A stretch of DNA of 64,000 bases, taken from NCBI GenBank assembly GCA_964626665.1, contig CAZVGK010000001.1, positions 141,914 to 205,913 on the forward strand, read 5' to 3'. Of this stretch, positions 1,001 through 64,000 are shown one piece after another. The translations under genes and the position numbers were made by a program. Below the pieces are notes generated by a model. The model saw only the letters and a list, made by a program, of their open reading frames with translations. It did not search any database and was not told where the DNA came from. Every line of letters begins with the position of its first letter. Positions within the stretch are counted from its first letter, which is position 1. Source of the stretch: an uncultured Gemmatimonadota bacterium. Lineage in GTDB: Bacteria; SM23-81; DAOVCL01.

Positions 1001-1035
1001 GAAACTGCAGGATTTTCCCTCTTTCAAAAGAAAGA

Positions 1036-1090
1036 GGTGGTAGAACCCCGATTCTGCCACCTACCGCCGTCAGATGAGGGCATCTGACGG
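1036..1090. repeat. Pair of hairpin-forming palindromes (REP-like) in the fliK-flgD spacer
   Basis: ggtggtagaa-ccccga-ttctgccacc and ccgtcagatg-aggg-catctgacgg; same stem sequence family as 4455-4479 and 4646-4669. Confidence 0.6.
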
Positions 1091-1145
1091 CTCAGTCTAA
1101 ATTTCCATTTTCCATCACTCAGGGCTCTGCCCTAACGGCACAGGA

Positions 1146-1205
1146 AAGTTTCATTTTTAATTCTTAATTGCTTTTTTCCGTGAGCTTCCGTGGTAAACTG
1201 TTAGC
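1146..1205. repeat. Repeat that is the inverted copy of 32247-32312
   Basis: Reverse complement matches 32247-32312 closely (estimated by eye at about 90 percent, one 6-nt indel). Confidence 0.7.
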
Positions 1206-1247
1206 CCTCAACAATGAAACCCAAATTTAGAAAGGAGGTGAAAAGAG

Positions 1248-1910
1248 ATGAGCAGCGAAATCATTGCTCCCCTTAGTTCCACAGGCGATCAAACCTCTTA
1301 CTTTACGGGGGGCGCGACCCTGGGGAAGGAGGATTTCCTCAAGCTCCTGATCATACAGCTTCAATATCAGGATCCCCTAAGCCCTATGGAGAACACGGAC
1401 TTTATGGCTCAACTTGCCCAATTCAGTAGCTTGGAACAGCTCCAGAATGTAAACTCCAATCTCCAGGCGAACTTTCTCCTCACCCAATCCCTGAACAACT
1501 CCTTGGCCACTAACCTGATCGGGAAGAGGGTCATTGCCCAGGGCAACCAGGTTTACTTAGCGGGAGATGAGGGGGAGGAGATAACCTTTGCCCTGGCCGC
1601 CGACGCTGGGGTCACCGTAGAGGTCTACGATGCCGCTGGAAACCTGGTGAAGACTCTCAAGGGTGGTGCCCTCTCCTCCGGGAGAAACCAAATCCACTGG
1701 GACGGTAAGGACAGTGATGGCAACCAACTTCCCCCTGGCAACTACACCTACAAGCTTACGGCTACCGACTCCGATGGGAATTCGGTGGATGTAACCACCT
1801 ATAGCACAGGGCTGATCGGTGGGGTCAGGTTCCAGGACGGCAATGCCGTTCTCATAATGGGAGACCAGGAAATTAACCTCTCCGATATAGTGGAGATTCT
1901 TACTCCATAG
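1248..1910 (+). CDS. flgD: Flagellar hook capping/assembly protein FlgD
   Basis: N-terminal motif FLKLLIIQLQYQDPLSPMENTDFMAQLAQFSSLEQL typical of FlgD; C-terminal Ig-like region; AGGAGG RBS before the ATG. Confidence 0.85.
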   Translation: MSSEIIAPLSSTGDQTSYFTGGATLGKEDFLKLLIIQLQYQDPLSPMENTDFMAQLAQFSSLEQLQNVNSNLQANFLLTQSLNNSLATNLIGKRVIAQGNQVYLAGDEGEEITFALAADAGVTVEVYDAAGNLVKTLKGGALSSGRNQIHWDGKDSDGNQLPPGNYTYKLTATDSDGNSVDVTTYSTGLIGGVRFQDGNAVLIMGDQEINLSDIVEILTP

Positions 1911-1926
1911 GGAAGGAGGTGATGAG

Positions 1927-2313
1927 ATGGTCGATATAATCCACGGTGCTCCAGTTAACCCTTTAACTTCTCCCCCTTCACAGGGGAGGAGGCCCCAGCT
2001 ACCCAACAATTCTCAAGCCTTTCGCCAGATCCTCAGCAAAAAGATAGAAGAAGGGAACTACAATTTGAGATTCTCCTCCCATGCAATGCAGAGGCTGGTG
2101 GCCCGGGGCATAAACTTAACCTCTTATGACCTGAATAGGGTTGACGGCGCTGTGGAGAGGGCAAAAGCAAAGGGGGCCAAGGACTCGCTGGTTCTTCTTG
2201 GCGATCTGGCCTTTTTAGTGAGTGTGGAAAACAGAACAGTTATCACCGCCCTGGTGGGCTCCTCCCTGAGGGAGAAGATCTTTACCCACATTGATAGTGC
2301 GGTGATAGCTTAA
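1927..2313 (+). CDS. Small flagellar operon protein of the kind often found between flgD and flgE (TIGR02530-like), function unknown
   Basis: Position between flgD and flgE, size 128 aa, GGAGG RBS; assignment is by synteny and my memory of the family, not by a motif. Confidence 0.4.
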   Translation: MVDIIHGAPVNPLTSPPSQGRRPQLPNNSQAFRQILSKKIEEGNYNLRFSSHAMQRLVARGINLTSYDLNRVDGAVERAKAKGAKDSLVLLGDLAFLVSVENRTVITALVGSSLREKIFTHIDSAVIA

Positions 2314-2392
2314 AACTGGGCTGGACCCCCATAGGGGAAGCCCAGGGTTGCCGAACGACGGAGGCAACCCAGGAAAAAGGGGGTAATTTAAG

Positions 2393-4438
2393 ATGATGCA
2401 GTCACTCTATGCCGGTGTATCCGGATTGAAAAACCATTTAACCAGGATGGATGTCATCGGCAACAACATAGCCAATGTGAACACCATTGGCTTCAAGTCG
2501 GGAAGGGTAACCTTCAAGGAGGCAATGTCCGCCCTCCTGCGGGGGGCTACCAGGCCCTCGTTGGAGAGGGGAGGGGTCAACCCGATGCAGATTGGCTTGG
2601 GGATGGCCATAGGCTCAATTGACAACATCTTCACCCAGGGGAGCTTAGAGACCACAGGCATTATCACCGATCTGGCCCTGCAGGGCGATGGTTTCTTTGT
2701 CCTCAGGGACGGGGAAAAGAGGTATTTTACCCGAGCCGGGGCCTTCCGGGTGGACTCCTTAGGGAGAATGGTTAGCCCTGATGGTCTGATAGTTCAAGGG
2801 AAGATGGCCGATGCCTTAGGGGTGATCGGGTCGGGAACCGCAGTGGGCGATATCACCCTACCCTTTGGCCAGAAGACGGCAGCAAAGGCCACATCGGAGA
2901 TAGGCTTCACCTGTAATCTGGATTCGAGGGAGAGCCCTTTGAGCTCCATCTTTGACTCCAAATCCCTCTTGGCTATTGAGGAGGGAAGCAACGATATGAG
3001 CGGCCTCTATGCCAATGGAAATGCTAACAGCGCACTCGCCCTCACCCCGGGCGATACGGTAACGGTGCAGATAGGCGCCACATCTGTAACCTATACCTAT
3101 GTGGAAACAGACTCCGGAGCCACGGCTGATGACTTTCACACCATCAATGACCTCATAGCCGAGGTGAACAATGATTTTTCCGGCACGATTACCGCAAGCA
3201 TAGACTTGGATGGAGCCATAAACTTCACCAATGGTTCAGGTGGGGATATCACCCTCACCATCACCAGCTCCAATGCCACCCTACAGAGTAGCTTGGGAGC
3301 AGAAGGGGGAGTAAGCATTGCCAATGGGGGGTCTCACCTAAGCGATCAGTTCTCCCATACCTCGATGGGAGGTGATCTCTTGGTTAACCTCAGGGATTCC
3401 GAGGGGAATGGTCTGGAGATTGTAGCCACTGATGTGATCAACATCAGCGGCTCCATCGGGGGAACAGGGATTGGAGCCAGCAGCTTCACCGCTACCTCAT
3501 CAAGTACCCTGACCGATCTGGCTACTGCTATCGAGACTGCTTTTGACACCTCTGCCGCCGCGGGAGGTAGTGACATAGCGGAGGTAACCATCGACAGTGA
3601 TGGTTCTATCAGGGTGGGAACTGTGGCTGGAGCTCCTTCTCAGGTAACATCGGTTACCGTGAACTGCAGTGGAAAACCTGTCTTCAACACGGCGATGACC
3701 TTTATGCAGACTCAGCAGCCCACCACCGTTTCCCACTCCACCTCCATAACTGCATATGACAGCCAGGGGGGAACTCATATAATCACCTTCACCTTCACCA
3801 AGGATGCTACCGCGGAAAACATATGGGACTGGACGGCCTCGGTAGAGGAGCCAGCCACGATGATCAGCGGCTATTCGGGGAAGGTGGAATTCAATACTGA
3901 CGGCTCCCTGAAGAGCTTTAGCTATGATACGGGGAGCAGCTTCAAGTTCGCCCCAGGGACCGGTGCGGATAGCCCGGTGGAGATTAGCCTCAACCCAGGT
4001 GAGATGGGGGGTTTCACTGGCGTCACCCAGTTTGCCTCCCCCTCTACCACCATTGCCTCCAGCCAGGATGGATATGGAATGGGAACCCTGGACTCCATAT
4101 CCATAGGTGAAGATGGGACGATCACCGGCTCCTTCACCAACGGCGTGCTCCGTACCTTGGCCCAGATCTCCCTGGCTTCCTTTAAAAATCCTGAGGGGTT
4201 GAAGAAAGCAGGGGACAGCCTCTACCAGGAGACCACCAACTCCGGACTTCCTCTGATTGGATCAGCAGGAACCACCGTCCACGCCACCATCTCCTCCGGG
4301 GCCTTAGAGATGTCCAATGTGGACCTGGCTCAGGAGTTCGTCAATATGATCGTCGCTCAGAGGGGATTCCAGGCTAACGCCAGGATCATTACCACCAGCG
4401 ATGATATGCTGCGAGAGCTGGTCAACCTGAAGAGGTAA
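2393..4438 (+). CDS. flgE: Flagellar hook protein FlgE (long form with central insertion domains)
   Basis: N-terminal rod/hook domain (SLYAGVSGLKNHLTRMDVIGNNIANVNTIGFK) and C-terminal domain (DLAQEFVNMIVAQRGFQANARIITTSDDMLRELVNL); Ser/Thr/Gly-rich middle. Confidence 0.9.
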   Translation: MMQSLYAGVSGLKNHLTRMDVIGNNIANVNTIGFKSGRVTFKEAMSALLRGATRPSLERGGVNPMQIGLGMAIGSIDNIFTQGSLETTGIITDLALQGDGFFVLRDGEKRYFTRAGAFRVDSLGRMVSPDGLIVQGKMADALGVIGSGTAVGDITLPFGQKTAAKATSEIGFTCNLDSRESPLSSIFDSKSLLAIEEGSNDMSGLYANGNANSALALTPGDTVTVQIGATSVTYTYVETDSGATADDFHTINDLIAEVNNDFSGTITASIDLDGAINFTNGSGGDITLTITSSNATLQSSLGAEGGVSIANGGSHLSDQFSHTSMGGDLLVNLRDSEGNGLEIVATDVINISGSIGGTGIGASSFTATSSSTLTDLATAIETAFDTSAAAGGSDIAEVTIDSDGSIRVGTVAGAPSQVTSVTVNCSGKPVFNTAMTFMQTQQPTTVSHSTSITAYDSQGGTHIITFTFTKDATAENIWDWTASVEEPATMISGYSGKVEFNTDGSLKSFSYDTGSSFKFAPGTGADSPVEISLNPGEMGGFTGVTQFASPSTTIASSQDGYGMGTLDSISIGEDGTITGSFTNGVLRTLAQISLASFKNPEGLKKAGDSLYQETTNSGLPLIGSAGTTVHATISSGALEMSNVDLAQEFVNMIVAQRGFQANARIITTSDDMLRELVNLKR

Positions 4439-4454
4439 TAGTTAAAATGAAAGA

Positions 4455-4479
4455 GGCGGCAGAACTGGGTTCTGCCGCC
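4455..4479. repeat. Perfect palindromic hairpin immediately after the flgE stop
   Basis: ggcggcagaac-tgg-gttctgccgcc; no strong U-run, so REP-like rather than a classic terminator. Confidence 0.6.
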
Positions 4480-4645
4480 ATCCTCTCTTCCCGTCAGGTG
4501 AGGGCACCTACCTGCTCAGGGGTTAATTCTCCCCCACTGGCGGGAGGGTAGCCGCACTTTTAGATTGCGAAAGGACGCAGACTGAAGTCTGCAGCTACCG
4601 GCGGGACAATATAGTAGCTGAGCGGTCAGGTCCCCTGATTTGACC

Positions 4646-4669
4646 GTGGCAGAACAAGGGTTCTGCCAC
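4646..4669. repeat. Second copy of the GGCAGAAC / GTTCTGCC hairpin
   Basis: gtggcagaac-aagg-gttctgccac followed by ctcgttccatttt (compare ttccatttt after the 1036-1090 hairpins). Confidence 0.6.
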
Positions 4670-4727
4670 CTCGTTCCATTTTGTGCCCCCAGCAGCAAAG
4701 TCAAGCTTCGCTAAACTGTGAGGAAGG

Positions 4728-6251
4728 ATGAAGTTATTTTACATCTCCACCTTTCTATCCCTTGTCCTCTTGGTCTCATCCTGTGCCAAGAAGCCGACCA
4801 AGGAAGAGAATCATCCACCGGTAATCAGCGAGCTTAAAGCCAGCAAATTAGCCGTGGATTTCCAAACGGATGTGACCATCACCGCCCAGGTTACCGATCA
4901 GGATGAGGATGAGCTCAGTGCAACCTGGAGGGCTAACTGGGGAAACTTTAAGGCTAGCTCCCAGGATTCGGCCATCTGGACATCGCCTTCTTCCCCAGCT
5001 ATCGCCACCCTGACATTGGTGGTTTCCGATGGAAAGGGGGGAGGGGACAGGGACAGTCTGCAGATAGGGGTGAGGGACAACCCACCCCAAATAACCGGCC
5101 TCATCGCCCGTTCTCCCAACCTCACCTTGGGGGGAGAGACGGTCATCCTTTGCACTGCTTCTGATCCCGATGGGGATACACTCAGCTATGCCTGGGAAGG
5201 GTCTGGAGGGGCCTTCTCGTGGCTCCAGGGCGACTCCTGCGGCTGGGTAGCCCCCTCCCAGGAGGGAATCTATCAAATCACAGTAAAGGTTGTAGATGGG
5301 AAAGGGGGAGAGGTGGGAGACAGCCTCAGTATGAAGGTATATAGGGAGTCTGGATGTTGCTGGGTCTCCGATACCTTTCACGATCAGGTGGTGAAGGTCT
5401 CTCCGCAGGGGATAGTGCTCTTTCGGGTGACAGGCTTCTCCCAGCCCTTTGGTATGGCCGTCAACCCCTTAGAGGAAGCCTGTTGGGTGGCGGATACCTA
5501 CAATAACAGGGTGGTAAAGCTGGATTCTCAGGGAGGAAATGAGGCCATTGTAACAGGATTTCAGGCTCCAAAGGCCCTGTCCTGTTTCTATATTGAAGGG
5601 GCCTGTTGGATAACCGATTCCGGAGGAGATCAGGTGGTGAAGGTCTCTTATGATGGGCAAGAGCTGCTTAGGGTGGGAGGATTCCATTCTCCCCAATCAG
5701 TGGCCGTTGATCAGGCAAACGGAGGCTGTTGGGTGGCTGACACTGGGGGGGATCGGGTCGTTTGGCTCTCCGCAACGGCGCCCGATGGAGCATTGGTGGA
5801 TAGCCTTCCCTCTACGGATGCGCTGATTGTAGGGGGGATGGGTAGTCCGATAGCGGTCTCCGTGAGCAGATTTGATGGCTCCTGCTGGGTAGCGGAGAAG
5901 GACTCCAATAGGGTAGCGAAGATCTCCTCCCAAGGGCAGGTATTGCTGCGCATTCAGGACTTGCAGGCCCCTCAATCGGTAAGCGTAAACTCCCGGGATG
6001 GATGTTGTTGGGTGGCAGATACGGGAGCCAACCGGGTAGTTAAGTTCTCCCCTTCCGGCGATCTCCTCTTAGAGGTGAAGGATCAATTCCACCAGCCATA
6101 CTCCGTAGCGGTGAACCCTACCGATGGTTCTTGTTGGGTGGCAGACACCTATGGCTATCGGGTGGTAAAACTGTCATCTCAAGGTGATCTCCTCTACGCG
6201 ATAGGGGGTTTTACCGCTCCCCGGGCCATCTCAGTGAACCCCGGCCAATGA
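4728..6251 (+). CDS. Predicted lipoprotein: two Ig/PKD-like domains followed by a seven-bladed NHL/YVTN-type beta-propeller; function unknown
   Basis: Signal peptide with lipobox (LLVSSC); seven tandem blades each starting CW[VI][AST]D...R or Q V[VA]K; embedded between flgE and flbD-motAB with host-like codon usage. Confidence 0.7.
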   Translation: MKLFYISTFLSLVLLVSSCAKKPTKEENHPPVISELKASKLAVDFQTDVTITAQVTDQDEDELSATWRANWGNFKASSQDSAIWTSPSSPAIATLTLVVSDGKGGGDRDSLQIGVRDNPPQITGLIARSPNLTLGGETVILCTASDPDGDTLSYAWEGSGGAFSWLQGDSCGWVAPSQEGIYQITVKVVDGKGGEVGDSLSMKVYRESGCCWVSDTFHDQVVKVSPQGIVLFRVTGFSQPFGMAVNPLEEACWVADTYNNRVVKLDSQGGNEAIVTGFQAPKALSCFYIEGACWITDSGGDQVVKVSYDGQELLRVGGFHSPQSVAVDQANGGCWVADTGGDRVVWLSATAPDGALVDSLPSTDALIVGGMGSPIAVSVSRFDGSCWVAEKDSNRVAKISSQGQVLLRIQDLQAPQSVSVNSRDGCCWVADTGANRVVKFSPSGDLLLEVKDQFHQPYSVAVNPTDGSCWVADTYGYRVVKLSSQGDLLYAIGGFTAPRAISVNPGQ

Positions 6252-8564: not shown

Positions 8565-8710
8565 GGAATGGACCTTCATCAATGATCAATTAACAATTAG
8601 CAATGGTCAATTAGCAAGTCTTAAAGAGGGAAAATCCTGAAGTGTCAATTTCCATTGATCATTGATTATTTCTGTGCCAGTCCGTGGCTATCGGTGGTGA
8701 ACAATTATTC
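8565..8710. repeat. Composite MITE-like intergenic repeat in the fliL-fliM spacer
   Basis: ccacggaa ... caattaacaattagcaatggtcaattagcaagtcttaaagagggaaaatcctgaagtgtcaatttccattgatcattg ... tttctgtgccagtccgtggctatcggtggtg. Confidence 0.7.
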
Positions 8711-12825: not shown

Positions 12826-12920
12826 TTATACAATTATCAATTAGCAAGTTAAAATGAAATGAAGACCGAAGTGTCACTTTCCATTGATAATTGATAATTG
12901 ATCATGACCATTTCTTAGCG
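12826..12920. repeat. MITE-like intergenic repeat in the fliR-flhB spacer
   Basis: caattatcaattagcaagttaaaatgaa...gtgtcactttccattgataattgataattg...accatttcttagcggtgg; terminal inverted repeats caattatcaatt / aattgataattg. Confidence 0.7.
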
Positions 12921-20557: not shown

Positions 20558-20568
20558 GGGGAAATTTG

Positions 20569-20633
20569 CAATTATCAATTAACAATGAGCAATTAAGAAA
20601 TCCCCCCTATACAATGGAAAAAGAGCAGAAAGA
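20569..20633. repeat. Partial copy of the caattatcaat repeat upstream of the DUF342-like gene
   Basis: caattatcaattaacaatgagcaattaagaaa...acaatggaaaaag. Confidence 0.5.
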
Positions 20634-21575: not shown

Positions 21576-21764
21576 GAAGTGAAAAAGGGCCACATTTTTA
21601 TTTTTGACTTTTCGCAAGTGAAAAGGCAGTTGATGCTTATTGTCCTCTCAGATATCGGTAAGTCCAGAGTAAAGATCCGACCCCATCTTAACCGAGTTGA
21701 TTTCCTTTCTTTGACCTTACCTGTTAGACCCCCAAAAATGGGGGACGGTGGTGCAGAGAGTGCA

Positions 21765-22310
21765 TTAGCTCTTCCATTTATTTGAGATCCTTTCCCCGAT
21801 AAGACTTATCTCTTTCTTACTTACAACCCTGTTGATACATGAAGTAGTCACCCCTAAATGACGGGCAACTTCTGCTCCACTCATCCCTAACTTCTTTAAG
21901 GCCAATTGAGCAACTATAAACCTTCTATACCTATTTTGGGCTTCCTTTGTCCCTTCTCCAAATCTGGCCAATACCTCTTCTACTCTCTGTCATGACCTTT
22001 CTATCTTCCCCATTAAGGCTGAATGACCACACCAGGGATACCGATCAAGCTCTTCTAAGTTCTTCACCAATCCTGCTCGATATGGACATATCTGGTAAGC
22101 TCTAACAAAAAAGGGGTTTCTTCACATAGAATTGATTTATATCGGTTTTGAAAGAGGTATCCCTGCCTATTATTGAAGCTTACGGCGTATCCAGTCATCA
22201 GTTTCCTCATAGCCGAAGATAGAGATGTAACCCTGTGCGAATCAGGAGATGAAAATGGTTGGGAATCAAAGCCCAAGCATATATCTGCCCCATCGTCCCC
22301 TATGCTGTCT
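21765..22310 (-). pseudogene. Degraded IS200/IS605-family or RAYT-like (Y1 HuH) transposase, broken by frameshifts and in-frame stops
   Basis: Three reading frames on the - strand give consecutive pieces: ...IYAWALIPNHFHLLIRT (HuH motif), MRKLMTGYAVSFNNRQGYLFQNRYKSIL..., VKNLEELDRYPWCGHSALMGKIE, and a C-terminal HTH-like tail; no intact ORF. Confidence 0.55.
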
Positions 22311-29999: not shown

Positions 30000-30150
30000 C
30001 CCTGTTTTTCTGTGCATAGTCCGTGGTTATCTGTGGTAAATTATTACTCAATTAACGATTAGCAAGTTAAAATGAAGCCAGAAAATCCTGAGATGCGGGC
30101 CATTTTCCATTGATAATTGTTCATTGACCATTTCTTGGTCTGTCCGTGGT
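30000..30150. repeat. Composite AT-rich intergenic repeat (MITE-like) in the rpsE-rpmD spacer
   Basis: Contains ctgtttttctgtgcatagtccgtggttatctgtggt, then caattaacgattagcaagttaaaatgaa...gaaaatcctga...ttccattgataattg...accatttcttgg...tccgtggtg; related copies at 8565-8710 and 12826-12920. Confidence 0.7.
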
Positions 30151-32246: not shown

Positions 32247-32395
32247 TAACAGTTTACCACGGAATCTCACGGAAAAAAGCAATTAAGAATTGAAAATTAA
32301 AAATGAAACTTATGCTGGCCCCTCCTGATCTCTGAAGACTGATCTCTGTTTTTCTGTGCTAGTCCGTGGTCATCCGTGGTGAAATATTCTCTCCT
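32247..32395. repeat. Intergenic repeat block in the rplE-rpsZ spacer
   Basis: 32247-32312 is the near-exact reverse complement of 1146-1205; 32345-32390 matches the ctgtttttctgtgc-tagtccgtggt block at 30000-30043. Confidence 0.7.
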
Positions 32396-41488: not shown

Positions 41489-42703
41489 TTATCTCACCAA
41501 CATCAACTTCCTCACATTGGTGAGGGCTCTCCCTCTTCTGTTCTCAGCCCGCAACAGGCAAAGATATATCCCACTTGGTACTTCCTTCCCTCCCCCATCC
41601 CTCCCATCCCAGATCACCCGATGCTCTCCAGGTGGCTGTGGGCCATCCACCAGTGTCCGCACCACCTGTCCCAAGATGTTGTAGACCCTCAAGGTGGTTG
41701 GAACTGACCACTGACCACTGACCACTGGGGAAGGGAGGTGGTAGGGGATGACGGTACCCGAATTGAACGGGTTCGGATAGTTCTGGCCCAGGGCGAAAAA
41801 CCCTGGAACGATGGCCTTATCCTCAGATGGAACCCAATTGTGTGGCCTTGACCTGGGGTTTCTGACCCCATCGACCTCCCCAAATTGAGGACCTGTCGGC
41901 TCCGTGGAGGTGGTGGTGCAATCACCGTCGCCGATCGTGTCCACAGGAAAGCCAAGGGTGGTGTCGATATTCCCCTCACACTGCAGGTAGTTGCCGTCCA
42001 GGAAGCCCCCTCCCATGATGGTGTGGGATCCAAAGTTCCAACCGATGGTGAATATAATGTCGTTCTCCAACAACAAAGGATTGCTCGGTTCCAACCCAAA
42101 GAGCGCTCCTCCTCCTCCCGACCTCAAAAAGCAATATTCGATCACTGGAAAGGAAGAACTGTCACAGGCGACCAAAAACCCCCCCGTCTCAACCTGACTG
42201 CTCGTCCACATCAGCTTGCAGTGGGAGATGGTGGGAGAGGCGTTAGATATCTGGATCATTATACCCTCGGCACTGCTGGTGTGCTCCACCACACAGTACC
42301 TAAGAATGCACTCCGAATCCACACAGGTATCGTTAAATTTTATCCCCCCCCAGGCAGTCCAAGGCCACTCTTCACCATCGTCGGTGAAGCTAATCATCAC
42401 ATCTGGCTTCCCGCAGGCCTCTAAGGCCCCGTTGATGGTCAACCCAATAGCCTCCTCGAACTTCAACACCATCCCCGGATCTATGACCAGCTTGTCGTTG
42501 GCCGAGATGGTTAGGTTCCCACTTATCAGATAATACCCCTCATCCCGCCAGGTGACATCATCGGTAAGCTCGTCCACCATCTGCATGGTGTAAACCGTCC
42601 CATCCCCAGGGGAAACCCAATCGGCCCAGGCCAAAAGGGGGAAACACCAGATGATGCTGATAAAGACGATTAAACTCCTCCATTCTCTCATCCTCACCTC
42701 CAA
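41489..42703 (-). CDS. Secreted protein with Por/T9SS-type C-terminal sorting domain; central domain not assigned
   Basis: Signal peptide; C-terminus ALGQNYPNPFN...LRVYNILGQVVRTLVDGPQPPGEHRVIWDGRDGGGKEVPSGIYLC. Confidence 0.65.
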   Translation of the reverse strand: MEVRMREWRSLIVFISIIWCFPLLAWADWVSPGDGTVYTMQMVDELTDDVTWRDEGYYLISGNLTISANDKLVIDPGMVLKFEEAIGLTINGALEACGKPDVMISFTDDGEEWPWTAWGGIKFNDTCVDSECILRYCVVEHTSSAEGIMIQISNASPTISHCKLMWTSSQVETGGFLVACDSSSFPVIEYCFLRSGGGGALFGLEPSNPLLLENDIIFTIGWNFGSHTIMGGGFLDGNYLQCEGNIDTTLGFPVDTIGDGDCTTTSTEPTGPQFGEVDGVRNPRSRPHNWVPSEDKAIVPGFFALGQNYPNPFNSGTVIPYHLPSPVVSGQWSVPTTLRVYNILGQVVRTLVDGPQPPGEHRVIWDGRDGGGKEVPSGIYLCLLRAENRRGRALTNVRKLMLVR

Positions 42704-42790
42704 TTCCTTACCTCACCAATATCAACTTCCTCACGTTGGTGAGAGCTCTTCCTCTTCTGTAATATAGGGACACTTCCCAATAATTGTTAA
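42704..42790. repeat. Duplicate of the 404-aa gene 3' end plus junction (ghost of a CTD gene 3' end)
   Basis: 42691-42790 aligns with 41461-41560 (…ctcaccaaYatcaacttcctcacRttggtgagRgctctYcctcttctg…); on the - strand it would encode ...RALTNVRKLILVR-stop. Confidence 0.6.
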
Positions 42791-43104: not shown

Positions 43105-43150
43105 GATCGGTCTTTAAGGATCCTCATTCTTAATTCAAAATTCTTAATTG
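43105..43150. repeat. Short AT-rich repeat downstream of rplW, shared with 36840-36900
   Basis: aggatcctcattcttaattcaaaattcttaattgcc; the ttcttaattg module also occurs at 1160-1180 and, inverted, at 32275-32295. Confidence 0.5.
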
Positions 43151-43153
43151 CCT

Positions 43154-43444
43154 TTACCCCCCCTCAAAGATGCTGATGATGTCTCCTTCCTTTAGTTTGA
43201 CAATAGCCTTCTTCCAATTTGACCGCCTGCCCTCGTATCTTCCCATTCTCTTCGGTTTCCCCTTCATGAGCATAGTCTTTACATCCAGGACATTCACCCG
43301 AAAGAGCTTCTCCACTGCCCACTTCACCTCTATCTTGTTAGCCCTTCTATCGACCACAAAGGCATATTGATTGCTCGCTTCCTTGAGATTGTTGCTCTTC
43401 TCCGTGATATAAGGCCTTTTGATGATTGTGCGGGGGTCTCTCAT
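43154..43444 (-). CDS. rplW: 50S ribosomal protein L23
   Basis: IIKRPYITEKSNNLKEASNQYAFVVDRRANKIEVKWAVEKLFRVNV. Confidence 0.9.
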   Translation of the reverse strand: MRDPRTIIKRPYITEKSNNLKEASNQYAFVVDRRANKIEVKWAVEKLFRVNVLDVKTMLMKGKPKRMGRYEGRRSNWKKAIVKLKEGDIISIFEGG

Positions 43445-48353: not shown

Positions 48354-48449
48354 TTTAAAGCCTCCAAATTAGAGATATACCCTCCCATAGTAACCACCAA
48401 AATTTCTCCTAAACCTCACCCCTTTCCTTTGAGGAAAACAGAAATACTC

Positions 48450-49655
48450 CTATTTTATAACCTCTGCTACGACCCCTGCTCCCACGGTTCTTCCCCCCTC
48501 CCTGATGGCAAACCGTAGCTCCTTCTCCATCGCTATCGGCGTGATTAGCTCCCCCTCTATGGTCACATTATCCCCGGGCATGACCATCTCTACCCCCTCC
48601 GGTAGCTTTACCACCCCAGTCACATCCGTGGTGCGAAAATAAAACTGCGGCCTATACCCACCGAAGAAAGGTGTATGCCTACCCCCTTCCTCCTTCGTCA
48701 ATACATAGACCTCACCCTTAAACTTGGTATGCGGGGTGATCGACCCCGGGGCTGCTATTACCATCCCCCTCTCTAACTCATCCCTGTTTACCCCCCGCAA
48801 CAGCAAACCCACATTGTCCCCAGCCTCTGCCCGATCCAGGATCTTCCGAAACATCTCTACCCCAGTCACTACCGTCTTCTTCGTTTCCCTGATCCCTACC
48901 CTCTCCACCGCATTCCCTACCTTCACCGTCCCCCTCTCTACCCTCCCTGTCCCTACTGTCCCTCGCCCAGTAATGGAAAATACATCCTCCACAGACAGCA
49001 AGAAGGGCTTATCCAAATCCCTCTTCGGCTGAGGTATATACTTGTCCACCGCATCCATTAGCTCATAGATGCTCTTGAAGGCCTCACTCTCCTTCACCTC
49101 AGGGTTGGCTGCTGCCTCCATCGCCCGCAGGGCACTTCCCCTGATCACCGGCACCTCATCCCCCGGGAAGCTATACTCCGTGAGCAACTCCCTGACCTCT
49201 AACTCTACCAAATCCAATAGCTCAGGATCATCTACCTGATCTACCTTGTTCATATAGACTACTATATAGGGCACCCCTACCTGCCTGGCCAAAAGGATGT
49301 GCTCCCTGGTCTGGGGCATCGGCCCATCAGCAGCGGATACCACCAGGATGGCCCCATCCATCTGCGCCGCCCCGGTGATCATATTCTTCACATAATCGGC
49401 ATGCCCCGGACAGTCTATGTGCGCATAATGCCTGGCGGCGGTCTCATACTCCACATGGGCTATCGCTATGGTTAACCCCCGCTCCTTCTCCTCAGGAGCA
49501 TTGTCTATAGAATCAAATGTCCGGGCCTCCGCCAGGCCCTTCCTATGCAAGATCATGGTAATCGCCGCGGTCAAAGTGGTCTTCCCATGATCCACATGCC
49601 CAATAGTCCCTATGTTTATGTGCGGCTTCGTGCGCTCAAACTTCTTCTTCGCCAT
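48450..49655 (-). CDS. tuf: Elongation factor Tu
   Basis: [15 protein letters not shown]...DCPGHADY... Confidence 0.97.
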
Positions 49656-63525: not shown

Positions 63526-63602
63526 TGGCAGGCCTGGAGGGATTCGAACCCCCAACTTCCGGTTTTGGAGACCGGCGCTCTAGCCGTTAGAGCTACAGGC
63601 CT
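63526..63602 (-). tRNA. tRNA-Trp (anticodon CCA), CCA end encoded
   Basis: Hand-folded cloverleaf: acceptor AGGCCTG/CAGGCCT, D-stem GCTC/GAGC, anticodon stem CCGGT/ACCGG with loop CTCCAAA, T-arm GGGGG-TTCGAAT-CCCTC. Confidence 0.9.
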
Positions 63603-63608
63603 GCGATT

Positions 63609-63758
63609 TTACCTTGTCTCCCGGTGAATGGTATGTTTCTTACAGAACTTGCAATATTTTTTAAAGCTTAGCCTATCCGGATGTTTCCTCTTGTTCTTCG
63701 TAGTGGTATAATTTCTCCGCTTACACTCCGTGCAGGCCAAGGTAACTATTTCTCTCAT
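63609..63758 (-). CDS. rpmG: 50S ribosomal protein L33 (49 aa, below the ORF-track size cutoff)
   Basis: Hand translation: [49 protein letters not shown] with C-x2-C...C-x2-C zinc ribbon; start ATG overlaps the tuf copy 2 stop (ATGA). Confidence 0.85.
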
Positions 63759-64000
63759 TTTATGACCTCAGCTACGACCCCTGCTCCCACGGTTCTTCCC
63801 CCCTCCCTGATGGCAAACCGCAACTCTTTTTCCATGGCGATGGGCGTGATCAGCTCCCCCTCTATGGTCACATTATCCCCAGGCATGACCATCTCTACCC
63901 CCTCCGGTAGCTTTACCACCCCAGTCACATCCGTGGTGCGAAAATAAAACTGCGGCCTATACCCACCGAAGAAAGGTGTATGCCTACCCCCTTCCTCCTT
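63755..64000 (-). CDS. tuf: Elongation factor Tu, second copy (3' portion only; continues beyond the window)
   Basis: 63766-64000 is nearly identical to the 3' end of tuf at 48451-48690, with a few synonymous differences and a different stop codon. Confidence 0.9.

Follow-up and report, generated by a model that had tools for sequence, protein, structure and literature searches.

The window analysed here, a 64,000-nucleotide stretch of contig CAZVGK010000001.1 from an uncultured bacterium (assembly GCA_964626665.1), carries short palindromic hairpins in two intergenic spacers of a flagellar operon. These hairpins probably belong to a lineage-specific family of repetitive extragenic palindromes (REPs) that is organised like REP doublets forming hairpins (REPINs) and bacterial interspersed mosaic elements (BIMEs). 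The unit of the family is a doublet of two stem-loops, A and B, which has spread within and between related genomes, and the family is dispersed in the intergenic DNA of the organism of the window and of related uncultured (Zixibacteria-like) bacteria. Given that the same spacers are filled or empty in relatives, the elements in the two flagellar spacers are insertions with which the operon can dispense. The A and B hairpins are classed here as REP/BIME-like, and not as a proven system of REPs and a REP-associated tyrosine transposase (RAYT).

Palindromic hairpins in the flagellar spacers

The window was searched with the 11-nucleotide arm GGYGGCAGAAC/GTTCTGCCRCC and was also read directly, and both confirmed the three palindromes given in a preliminary description of this DNA (1036-1061, 4455-4479 and 4646-4669; here hairpin B). 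Copy 1 reads GGTGGTAGAAC-cccg-ATTCTGCCACC with one mismatch per arm, copy 2 reads GGCGGCAGAAC-tgg-GTTCTGCCGCC with a perfect 11-bp stem and a 3-nucleotide loop, and copy 3 reads GTGGCAGAAC-aagg-GTTCTGCCAC. With at most one mismatch allowed, the arm matches seven times in the window compared with 1.57 ± 1.16 times in shuffled sequences, none of 100 shuffles reaching seven, and six of the seven matches are arms of the three hairpins. The second palindrome of the description, ccgtcagatg/catctgacgg, placed there at 1067-1090, was found at 1066-1091 as GCCGTCAGATG/CATCTGACGGC with a perfect 11-bp stem (hairpin A). A looser hairpin search built on the shared core K-CAG-R-W-S/S-W-Y-CTG-M returned three hairpins in the window versus 0.125 in shuffles, all three located in the fliK-flgD and flgE-lipoprotein spacers.

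Each B palindrome has an A-type partner (1066-1091; 4491-4514, degenerate; and 4623-4646). Orientation is set by the G-rich loop and 3′ CTC of B, so that a forward unit reads A (loop CCCY), 3 to 18 nucleotides, B (loop NGGG), CTC. The minus strand carries copies 1 and 2 in the forward orientation; copy 3, inverted relative to them, is forward on the plus strand. Two of the three units are antisense to the flagellar operon. The 289-nucleotide flgE-lipoprotein spacer, in which several hairpins had been described, indeed holds two A-B doublets, and these face each other. The ttccatttt motif reported to follow two of the copies, TTCCATTTT, is present exactly twice (1103-1111 and 4674-4682), which is not above chance (1.1 expected); it lies at non-equivalent positions with respect to element orientation, was not seen in the other loci, and is not counted in the element. 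The features of the two spacers are the following.

944-1247, no strand, fliK-flgD spacer of 304 nucleotides: a mosaic of an AT-rich CAATTA array, hairpins B, A and C, and a 55-nucleotide TCCGTG module
1034-1063, minus strand, hairpin B copy 1: GAGGTGGTAGAAC-cccg-ATTCTGCCACCT on the plus strand, one mismatch per arm; G-rich loop, 3′ CTC and T-rich tail read on the minus strand
1066-1091, minus strand, hairpin A copy 1: GCCGTCAGATG-aggg-CATCTGACGGC, forming with B copy 1 an A-B doublet that is forward on the minus strand
1120-1134, no strand, hairpin C-like module: CAGGGCTCTGCCCTA, alone not significant in the window
4439-4727, no strand, flgE-lipoprotein spacer of 289 nucleotides: two inverted A-B doublets around a non-repeated middle
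4455-4479, minus strand, hairpin B copy 2: starts 17 nucleotides past the flgE stop codon; orientation taken from its flanks on the plus strand, a purine tract 5′ and hairpin A 3′
4491-4514, minus strand, degenerate hairpin A, partner of B copy 2: CCGTCAGGTG-aggg-CACCTACCTG
4623-4646, plus strand, hairpin A, partner of B copy 3: CGGTCAGGTC-ccct-GATTTGACCG with G.T pairs, preceded by a conserved GCTGAG lead-in
4646-4672, plus strand, hairpin B copy 3: GTGGCAGAAC-aagg-GTTCTGCCAC with the conserved 3′ CTC, inverted relative to copy 2

The degenerate A at 4491-4514 has an orthologue at a metagenome locus, L059, that keeps the perfect form CACCTGACGG (sampled loci are referred to by L numbers). The flagellar genes around the spacers are all on the plus strand: fliK (59-943), flgD (1248-1910), a small flagellar open reading frame (ORF; 1927-2313), flgE (2393-4438) and the gene of an NHL/PKD lipoprotein (4728-6251), then flbD, motA, motB, fliL, fliM and onward. 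The ribosomal-protein/rpoBC/tuf region comes next, on the minus strand.

The A-B doublet and its folding

Hairpin A, GCCGTCAGAT-CCCY-ATCTGACGGC, has the consensus G-C-S-GTCAGAT-S with loop CCCY and measures 26 nucleotides; hairpin B, GTGGCAGAAC-NGGG-GTTCTGCCAC-CTC, measures 24 nucleotides, or 27 with the CTC. Stems are 10-11 bp and loops 3-4 nucleotides long. The 3′ CTC of B is almost invariant and stands unpaired in nearly all forward-oriented copies. The two hairpins are diverged versions of one motif, G-K-CAGA-W-C (GTCAGAT/ATCTGAC in A, GGCAGAAC/GTTCTGCC in B); they have opposite polarity and lie 3-18 nucleotides apart, giving a doublet of about 60-70 nucleotides. Among 56 adjacent hairpin pairs, 39 are either A with the C-loop followed by B with the G-loop (21) or the reverse complement of this arrangement (18), with spacing modes at 3 and at 10-18 nucleotides; direct tandems (L020) and A-A-B clusters are found too. 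Non-orthologous loci share only the ~27-nucleotide B unit, the 60-70-nucleotide doublet or, in a subfamily with a 5′ extension, about 110 nucleotides. Near-identical 66-bp units (95%) occur at unrelated loci of one metagenome-assembled genome (MAG; L010/L028).

Stem pairing is maintained by compensatory changes. In 18 A hairpins from different loci, 95.5% of cells are paired and five of the 11 pairs have changed on both sides, notably by C:G to G:C exchange, in either direction, at positions 3/24 and 11/16. None of 500 shuffles reached the observed covariation score and slid controls collapsed, a result to be read with the selection of these 26-mers for good pairing. Both spacers fold far better than their shuffles do (z = -5.6 as DNA and -4.6 as RNA), with local stem-loops dominating. 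Mismatch counts bearing on strand-specific folding (G.T versus A.C) were 34:17 for B and 21:27 for A, a weak and inconsistent bias. The loop of B copy 2 (4466-4468) reads CTGGG in the window versus CCCTG in L059 between identical stems, which suggests a flipped loop, or conversion by an oppositely oriented copy, and not a point mutation.

A dispersed intergenic family

A scan of 185,579 species-representative genomes with GYGGCAGAACNNNNGTTCTGCCRC returned 29 stretches. Ten matches on nine contigs belong to MAG JAOZPP01 and three to the Zixibacteria MAG DAOVCL01, and all of these extend to the A partner, the CTC and the GCTGAG lead-in; the remainder are single, unrelated, terminator-like hairpins in assorted taxa. 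A metagenome collection scanned with GTGGCAGAACNNNNGTTCTGCCAC yielded 61 stretches and about 45 distinct family loci, mostly from three sample series, that of the window among them. No viral contig matched the pattern (0 hits), and a phage origin was rejected on this ground.

Relaxed matching over the family loci (534 kb) recovered 157 distinct hairpins (69 A and 88 B) in 111 clusters. About 49 clusters lie beyond the hits by which the loci had been selected, which is about one extra cluster per 11 kb and suggests a copy number on the order of 100 or more per genome (~100-300, a biased estimate as it is extrapolated from selected loci). All of the ~55 instances checked are intergenic. In 31 cases, genes were called to either side of the hairpin; 12 of these hairpins are co-directional with their neighbours on the same strand and 11 stand on the strand opposite to co-directional genes, while six lie between convergent and two between divergent genes. 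Mosaic clusters are found in L014, L020, L023, L033 and L038. Hairpin-bearing intergenic regions also hold a CAGGGCTCTGCCCTG hairpin, TCCGTG direct-repeat arrays and AT-rich CAATTA arrays; hairpins of the CAGGGCTCTGCCCTG type recur beside A/B units in L079 and L085. The resemblance to REPs that the preliminary description had proposed is upheld by multiple copies in at least three related genomes and ~45 metagenome loci, by their intergenic position in both orientations, by the inverted doublets and by presence/absence polymorphism.

Genes beside the hairpins at the other loci are unrelated to flagella. The 25 Pfam families that occur most often in 133 neighbouring ORFs do not include PF03963, the N-terminal family of FlgD, and the FlgD_ig matches among these ORFs go with a secretion C-terminal sorting domain (Por_Secre_tail/CHU_C). 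A flagellar association was not seen outside the window and was discarded as a general property. The 133 hairpin-adjacent ORFs include 16 with FlgD_ig, ten with Por_Secre_tail and five sigma-54 activators (L020, L024, L030, L033, L055, L079 and others); the Por_Secre_tail domains are C-terminal sorting domains of the type IX secretion system (T9SS) kind, in proteins ending ...KLVLLR. The occurrence of sorting-domain and sigma-54 neighbours, counted without a genome background, may reflect only long spacers around such genes. Hairpin copies also stand within ~150 nucleotides of metagenome contig ends (L019, L023, L070, L085 and L072), consistent with repeats breaking assemblies.

Orthologous flagellar spacers in relatives

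Homologues of FlgE were found at 81-88% identity, after which there is a gap down to about 54%. L059 is a closer relative that was found through the metagenome scan. The spacers compare as follows.

Window: fliK-flgD spacer 304 nucleotides with B, A and C; spacer downstream of flgE 289 nucleotides with two A-B doublets
L059 (flgE DNA 86.8% identical): fliK-flgD spacer with the same mosaic, B half-deleted (5′ arm replaced); downstream of flgE ~310 nucleotides with the same two doublets
L099 (FlgE 86%): fliK-flgD spacer 75 nucleotides without a hairpin; downstream of flgE 78 nucleotides without these hairpins
L100 (FlgE 84%): fliK-flgD spacer 49 nucleotides without a hairpin; downstream of flgE 148 nucleotides with one B ~20 nucleotides past the stop
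L101 (FlgE 54%): fliK-flgD spacer 60 nucleotides without a hairpin; downstream of flgE 64 nucleotides without a hairpin and without the lipoprotein gene

The gene order of L099 is identical to that of the window, lipoprotein gene included. Because orthologous spacers differ between such close relatives, the elements are acquired, lost and degraded within short evolutionary times, and the flagellar operon functions in their absence. The absence of the hairpins from close orthologues thus marks them as inserted, dispensable repeats and not as flagellar regulators. Some GC-rich hairpin stands just past the stop codon of every flgE orthologue.

Between the window and L059, identity is 90.6% and 83.1% in the two spacers, compared with 86.8% for flgE, 81.7% for the small ORF, 80.7% for the lipoprotein gene, 78.1% for flgD and 74.1% for fliK. 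The spacers are therefore at least as conserved as the adjoining coding DNA, and the repeats, where present, are under constraint or homogenised.

The NHL/PKD-repeat lipoprotein gene (4728-6251) stands between flgE and flbD in the window, L059, L099 and L100. In L101 flbD directly follows flgE and the lipoprotein gene is absent; it is an unusual passenger for a flagellar operon.

A decayed transposase with its own terminal repeats

The window holds one transposase remnant, which the preliminary description regarded as a degraded RAYT/IS200-like gene and linked to the hairpins. Two features belong to it.

21742-21763, plus strand, cognate terminal repeat GGGACGGTGGTGCAGAGAGTGC: sole copy in the window, abutting the 3′ end of the pseudogene
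21765-22310, minus strand, decayed Y1 (HUH) transposase gene: frameshifted, N-terminally truncated and internally deleted

The gene is a real, decayed Y1 gene. Its pieces lie in three frames and include ...YAWALIPNHFHLL..., ...GYLFQNRYKS... and a C-terminal helix-turn-helix (HTH); with Pfam Y1_Tnp they score 24 bits, where the cutoff is 23, and with NCBIfam REP_Tyr_transpos they reach 46 of the 80 bits required. The family to which it belongs consists of ~330-residue proteins (>7,700 hits), a few of which also have a precomputed DnaA_C (PF08299) hit. Three intact homologues, 63-76% identical to the pseudogene over the best aligned part, were examined together with their flanks. Two carry GGGGACG(G/T)TGGTGCAGARAGTGC upstream and its reverse complement just past the stop codon; in the third (L035), the upstream copy is present and the contig ends at the stop. 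These flanks are inverted copies of GGGACGGTGGTGCAGARAGTGC (beginning GGGGACGGTGGTGCAG...), and the same 22-mer stands beside the pseudogene of the window.

The gene at 21765-22310 is thus, on sequence grounds, a decayed Y1 transposase associated with terminal inverted repeats (TIRs), that is, a TIRYT, unrelated to the hairpin family. Because its family has 22-bp TIRs of its own, which flank the intact homologues, it is not the RAYT of the hairpins and was rejected as their cognate enzyme; the proposed link between hairpins and this gene falls with the unrelated flanks of its family. The TIR (GGTGGTGCAGA) and hairpin B (GGTGGCAGAA) share at most a short GGTGG..CAGA resemblance that needs a 2-nucleotide gap, and a kinship between them is unproven.

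The remnant retains one terminal repeat (GGGGACGGTGGTGCAGAGAGTGC at 21741-21763), and inverted pairs of the repeat that enclose no gene, about 100 nucleotides apart, occur in L060 (6618/6720) and L082 (1408/1510) and look like miniature TIR elements. Another decayed gene with Y1 and HTH parts and different ends (GGGGTCAACCCTCAGAAAATAGAT) lies at about 2900-3450 of L083, where the one weak match of the Y1 searches around the hairpins (~3058-3382) represents a decayed TIR-type gene 2 kb from a hairpin.

Points against a mobile repeat family

Several results weigh against reading the hairpins as a REP-like mobile family, and most of them concern the enzyme. A tblastn search with six Y1 proteins found nothing beside a hairpin in the loci it covered, nor did a home-made hidden Markov model of the Y1 domain applied to all ORFs of at least 60 residues in that set. 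The 25 Pfam families seen most often in the 133 nearest ORFs do not include Y1_Tnp. None of the ten ORFs that have hairpin clusters on both sides is a transposase: eight belong to ordinary families (TauE, nucleotidyltransferase, TPR, ADH, SH3, secreted proteins and others) and the other two lack a Pfam match. No transposase flanked by hairpins was found in the ~530 kb of sampled family loci. The mobilising enzyme is purely inferred. RAYTs are normally single-copy (PMC5581495), and for this reason a negative result in ~530 kb does not exclude a RAYT elsewhere in the genome.

The remaining points concern the repeats themselves. No target-site duplication or clean insertion boundary is recognisable, the empty orthologous spacers being too diverged. 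The conservation of the spacers above coding DNA may reflect host function and not selfish maintenance. The strict pattern gives only ~10 copies per MAG, in scans that covered no complete genome, whereas REPs usually number more than 100 per genome. Published palindromes of the REP type have, at one end, an unpaired tag that reads GTAG (GT[A/G]G) or CGTC (PMC3733652; PMC2817692), whereas here GTGG (in B) and CGTC (in A) form part of the paired stem and it is the 3′ CTC that is conserved and unpaired.

Alternative explanations

The doublet could primarily be a terminator, a stabiliser of mRNA 3′ ends or the 3′ end of a multi-copy small RNA (sRNA) gene, conserved through recognition by an RNA-binding protein or RNase. 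This is unlikely, even though forward B copies are often followed by CTC and a T-rich tail such as CTCGCTTTTGAGG, CTCGTTTTTGAG or CTCTTTCTTTTG, a simple terminator scan detects copies 1 and 2, both on the minus strand, and stabilisation of the upstream mRNA is a known effect of REPs (PMC3733652). The conserved 5′ extension of the ~110-nucleotide subfamily, the conservation of the spacers above coding DNA and the GC-rich hairpin behind every flgE orthologue point the same way. Against this, orientation relative to flanking genes is random (12 same strand, 11 opposite), two thirds of the units in the window face against the operon, the T-rich tail accompanies only about a third of copies, a close relative that shares the gene order lacks the hairpins in its orthologous spacers, and the bias of G.T over A.C mismatches is weak and inconsistent between B and A. 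Nor did Rfam give a match: at the gathering threshold, the only hit in the window was a tRNA (63529-63602), and the two spacers gave only chance-level hits (E ≥ 0.1), far below the cutoffs. The suggestion of a dedicated structured RNA in 4439-4727 was not sustained, given the lack of an Rfam match, the 78-nucleotide L099 spacer without these hairpins and the random orientation.

A classical miniature inverted-repeat transposable element (MITE) would make 4445-4690 a single non-autonomous element of ~245 bp with ~70-bp TIRs, derived from an insertion sequence (IS) and moved by a DDE enzyme, and 1034-1091 a solo end. Copies 2 and 3 with their A partners are mutually inverted, with outer ends AAAATGAAAGAGGCGGCAGAAC and, as reverse complement, AAAATGGAACGAGGTGGCAGAAC, and the whole flgE-lipoprotein spacer folds far better than shuffles. 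The middle of that spacer (4516-4614) is, however, unrepeated elsewhere in the data and the 60-70-nucleotide doublet alone recurs; elsewhere doublets are single, in direct tandem (L020) or variably spaced, L100 has one B at the same site, and neither target-site duplications nor a transposase were seen in the sampled loci, making this quite improbable. A yet weaker case can be made for the operator of a dimeric transcription factor, in which a 10+4+10 palindrome would mark a regulon, such as genes for flagella or secreted proteins. In its favour are the near-perfect palindrome, the high conservation of its sequence and the neighbouring genes, among them many for T9SS-type cargo (FlgD_ig 16/133, Por_Secre_tail 10/133) and some for sigma-54 activators (5/133). 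Yet six copies stand where two genes converge and no promoter is present, the orthologous sites of close relatives lack it, covariation in A keeps pairing and not sequence, and the asymmetry of loop and 3′ CTC together with the fixed A-B polarity is unexpected for a double-stranded operator; the spacing is also unlike that of a sigma-54 promoter (by inspection), and an operator is very unlikely.

DNA uptake sequences (DUS) often form inverted pairs behind genes, and that of Neisseria is GCCGTCTGAA, which the A arm GCCGTCAGAT resembles. Inverted DUS pairs are nonetheless hardly credible here: arms never occur singly in the window, GGCAGAAC and CCGTCAGAT are confined to hairpins, and shorter cores are at chance frequency. 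Two further ideas were dropped by inspection, namely a sigma-54 promoter reading of TGGCA...TTCTGC, suggested by the sigma-54 activators beside the hairpins, where the GG-to-GC spacing is 16-17 nucleotides and not 12, and integron attC-like core sites, as RYYYAAC/GTTRRRY does not fit GCAGAAC/GTTCTGC. No rival fits the combination of random orientation, doublet polarity, convergent locations, orthologue polymorphism and absence of single arms.

Proposed mechanism and implications

If the hairpins are a REP-like family, the units would spread, now or formerly, as single-stranded DNA hairpins. A hairpin-recognising Y1/HUH (RAYT-like) enzyme encoded elsewhere in the genome could act on them in trans, by analogy with TnpA(REP) and IS200/IS605, and the G-rich loop and 3′ CTC might supply strand-specific recognition. 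Where transcribed, the stable stems may act as 3′-end protectors or partial terminators, for example in the hairpin right after flgE. Such a secondary effect on transcripts is plausible because B lies 17 nucleotides past the flgE stop, a GC-rich hairpin follows the stop in every orthologue and about a third of forward copies have a T-rich tail. It is not why the family exists, since orientation is random, L099 lacks the hairpins and two thirds of the units in the window are antisense.

A bolder proposal is that the hairpins represent a REP-like superfamily outside the GTAG/CGTC tag classes, native to an uncultured lineage that is Zixibacteria-like and of the Fibrobacteres-Chlorobi-Bacteroidetes (FCB) group, conserved above coding DNA and with no RAYT beside the sampled copies; this is a tentative and rather unlikely possibility. 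Should there be no cognate RAYT genome-wide, the doublets may be moved by a different, undescribed hairpin-specific enzyme, or the host may keep them as intergenic cassettes, built from hairpin, TCCGTG-array and AT-rich modules, by which the limits of transcripts would be set in long operons such as the flagellar one.

For annotation, the long spacers of the flagellar operon are to be read as selfish or neutral repeat insertions and not as conserved regulatory RNAs, and the nearby transposase remnant as unrelated to the hairpins. Most described REP families are proteobacterial. The hairpins add a REP/REPIN-like family from a poorly studied uncultured lineage, with an unusual 3′ CTC tag and two diverged half-units, and identification of the mobilising enzyme would extend the host range and recognition rules of hairpin-processing Y1/HUH enzymes. 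The repeats also break metagenome assemblies and are possible strain-typing markers for the group.

Other repeats in the window

The mosaics of the spacers include further repeats. The 55-nucleotide module TTTCATTTTTAATTCTTAATTGCTTTTTTCCGTGAGCTTCCGTGGTAAACTGTTA occurs at 1149-1203 and, inverted, at 32247-32301 (95% identical). One copy is upstream of flgD and the other upstream of the gene for ribosomal protein S14, which is on the opposite strand; both are directed toward their genes. Its core, a TCCGTG-N4-5-TCCGTG(GT) direct repeat, is found three times in the window versus 0.01 expected; the same group of repeat modules also covers 8678-8706, 30017-30045 and 32360-32388. The TCCGTG repeat is frequent in the family loci (nine in L072, six in L092), often beside hairpin B. 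In L099 and L100, where the orthologous fliK-flgD spacer is short, the module is missing. It may serve as a promoter or as a cassette for protein binding, or be one more mobile module.

AT-rich heptad arrays of the CAATTA type (e.g., CAATTATCAATTAGCAA) form the third repeat family of the mosaics. They lie in both orientations in intergenic regions of the flagellar and ribosomal clusters (965-1003, 8575-8628, 12826-12905, 20564-20596, 30044-30137, 32275-32307 and 43124-43155). The 51 nucleotides at 974-1024 are 84% complementary to 8623-8673.

Two longer direct repeats lie further on. One of 249 nucleotides (95% identity) occupies 48447-48695 and 63752-64000, its second copy cut by the end of the window; the first copy overlaps the 3′ end of a 401-residue minus-strand ORF (48450-49655) that is read as EF-Tu from genomic context only, and an ordinary tuf duplication would fit this context. 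The other, of 53 nucleotides (91% identity), occupies 41489-41541, at the low-coordinate (3′) end of the minus-strand ORF 41489-42703, and 42708-42760, just beyond the start of that ORF, which suggests tandem paralogues or a repeated C-terminal or terminator segment.

Comparison with known repeat systems

The transposase remnant at 21765-22310 resembles the TIRYTs and TIRtrons, in which the TIRs are unrelated to REPs and often carry a GGGGWSAS-type motif (Di Nocera et al., 2013; PMC3733652). It is a Y1/HUH gene, its intact homologues are flanked by inverted terminal repeats, and gene-less miniature TIR pairs are known for its repeat (L060 and L082). The start of the TIR (GGGGACGG...) is an approximate fit to the published GGGGWSAS, and the remnant is assigned to this class with that reservation. 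It differs in that the copy in the window is decayed, with one TIR left.

Like MITEs of the Correia/NEMIS type and other small intergenic palindromes with terminator activity, the hairpins are intergenic and structured, can supply a stem-loop where a gene ends and differ from strain to strain. Elements of that kind are of defined length and have TIRs and TA target duplications, none of which were seen for the hairpins; it is the 60-110-nucleotide doublet that recurs and not the 245-bp unit, and the sampled loci hold no IS with these ends.

REPs, BIMEs and REPINs have been described in detail (Nunvar et al., 2010, PMC2817692; Bertels and Rainey, 2011, PMC3116915; PMC3733652). In common with the REPs and BIMEs of Enterobacteria and of Pseudomonas/Stenotrophomonas (PMC2817692; PMC3733652), the hairpins are short palindromes of 24-27 nucleotides that form stem-loops, are strictly extragenic and occur in many dispersed copies. 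They likewise stand after genes or between genes, convergent locations exceeding divergent ones (six versus two, with 23 co-directional), form clusters of alternating orientation with other modules, show compensatory stem changes and are present in some close relatives but not in others. A GT(A/G)G head, as in GTGGCGAGGG..., is listed for REPs in the literature (PMC2817692; PMC3733652), and B, which starts GTGG, is similar at its head to some Pseudomonas REPs; neither an unpaired GTAG nor an unpaired CGTC tag was found here. Unlike the REPs of E. coli, the stems are perfect 10-11-bp helices without the typical bulge or mismatch. The host also differs, being an uncultured FCB-group/Zixibacteria-like bacterium and not a proteobacterium. 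In contrast to REP-RAYT systems, no repeat-flanked RAYT accompanies the A/B hairpins, nor does any Y1 gene adjoin them in REPtron fashion in the ~530 kb.

The likeness to REPINs (PMC3116915) lies in the main unit, an inverted doublet at a preferred short spacing (39/56 adjacent pairs). Singlets and degraded partners also occur, such as the half-deleted B in L059 and the degenerate A at 4491-4514. As expected of REPINs and BIMEs, the units show signs of mobility, with filled and empty orthologous spacers in genomes whose FlgE is 84-90% identical, and near-identical units at unrelated loci. No associated RAYT is known for A-B doublets, and these fold as two local stem-loops and not as one long hairpin. 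Their halves, unlike those of REPINs, have diverged into the A and B types, which places them nearer to the Y and Z units of the BIMEs of E. coli.

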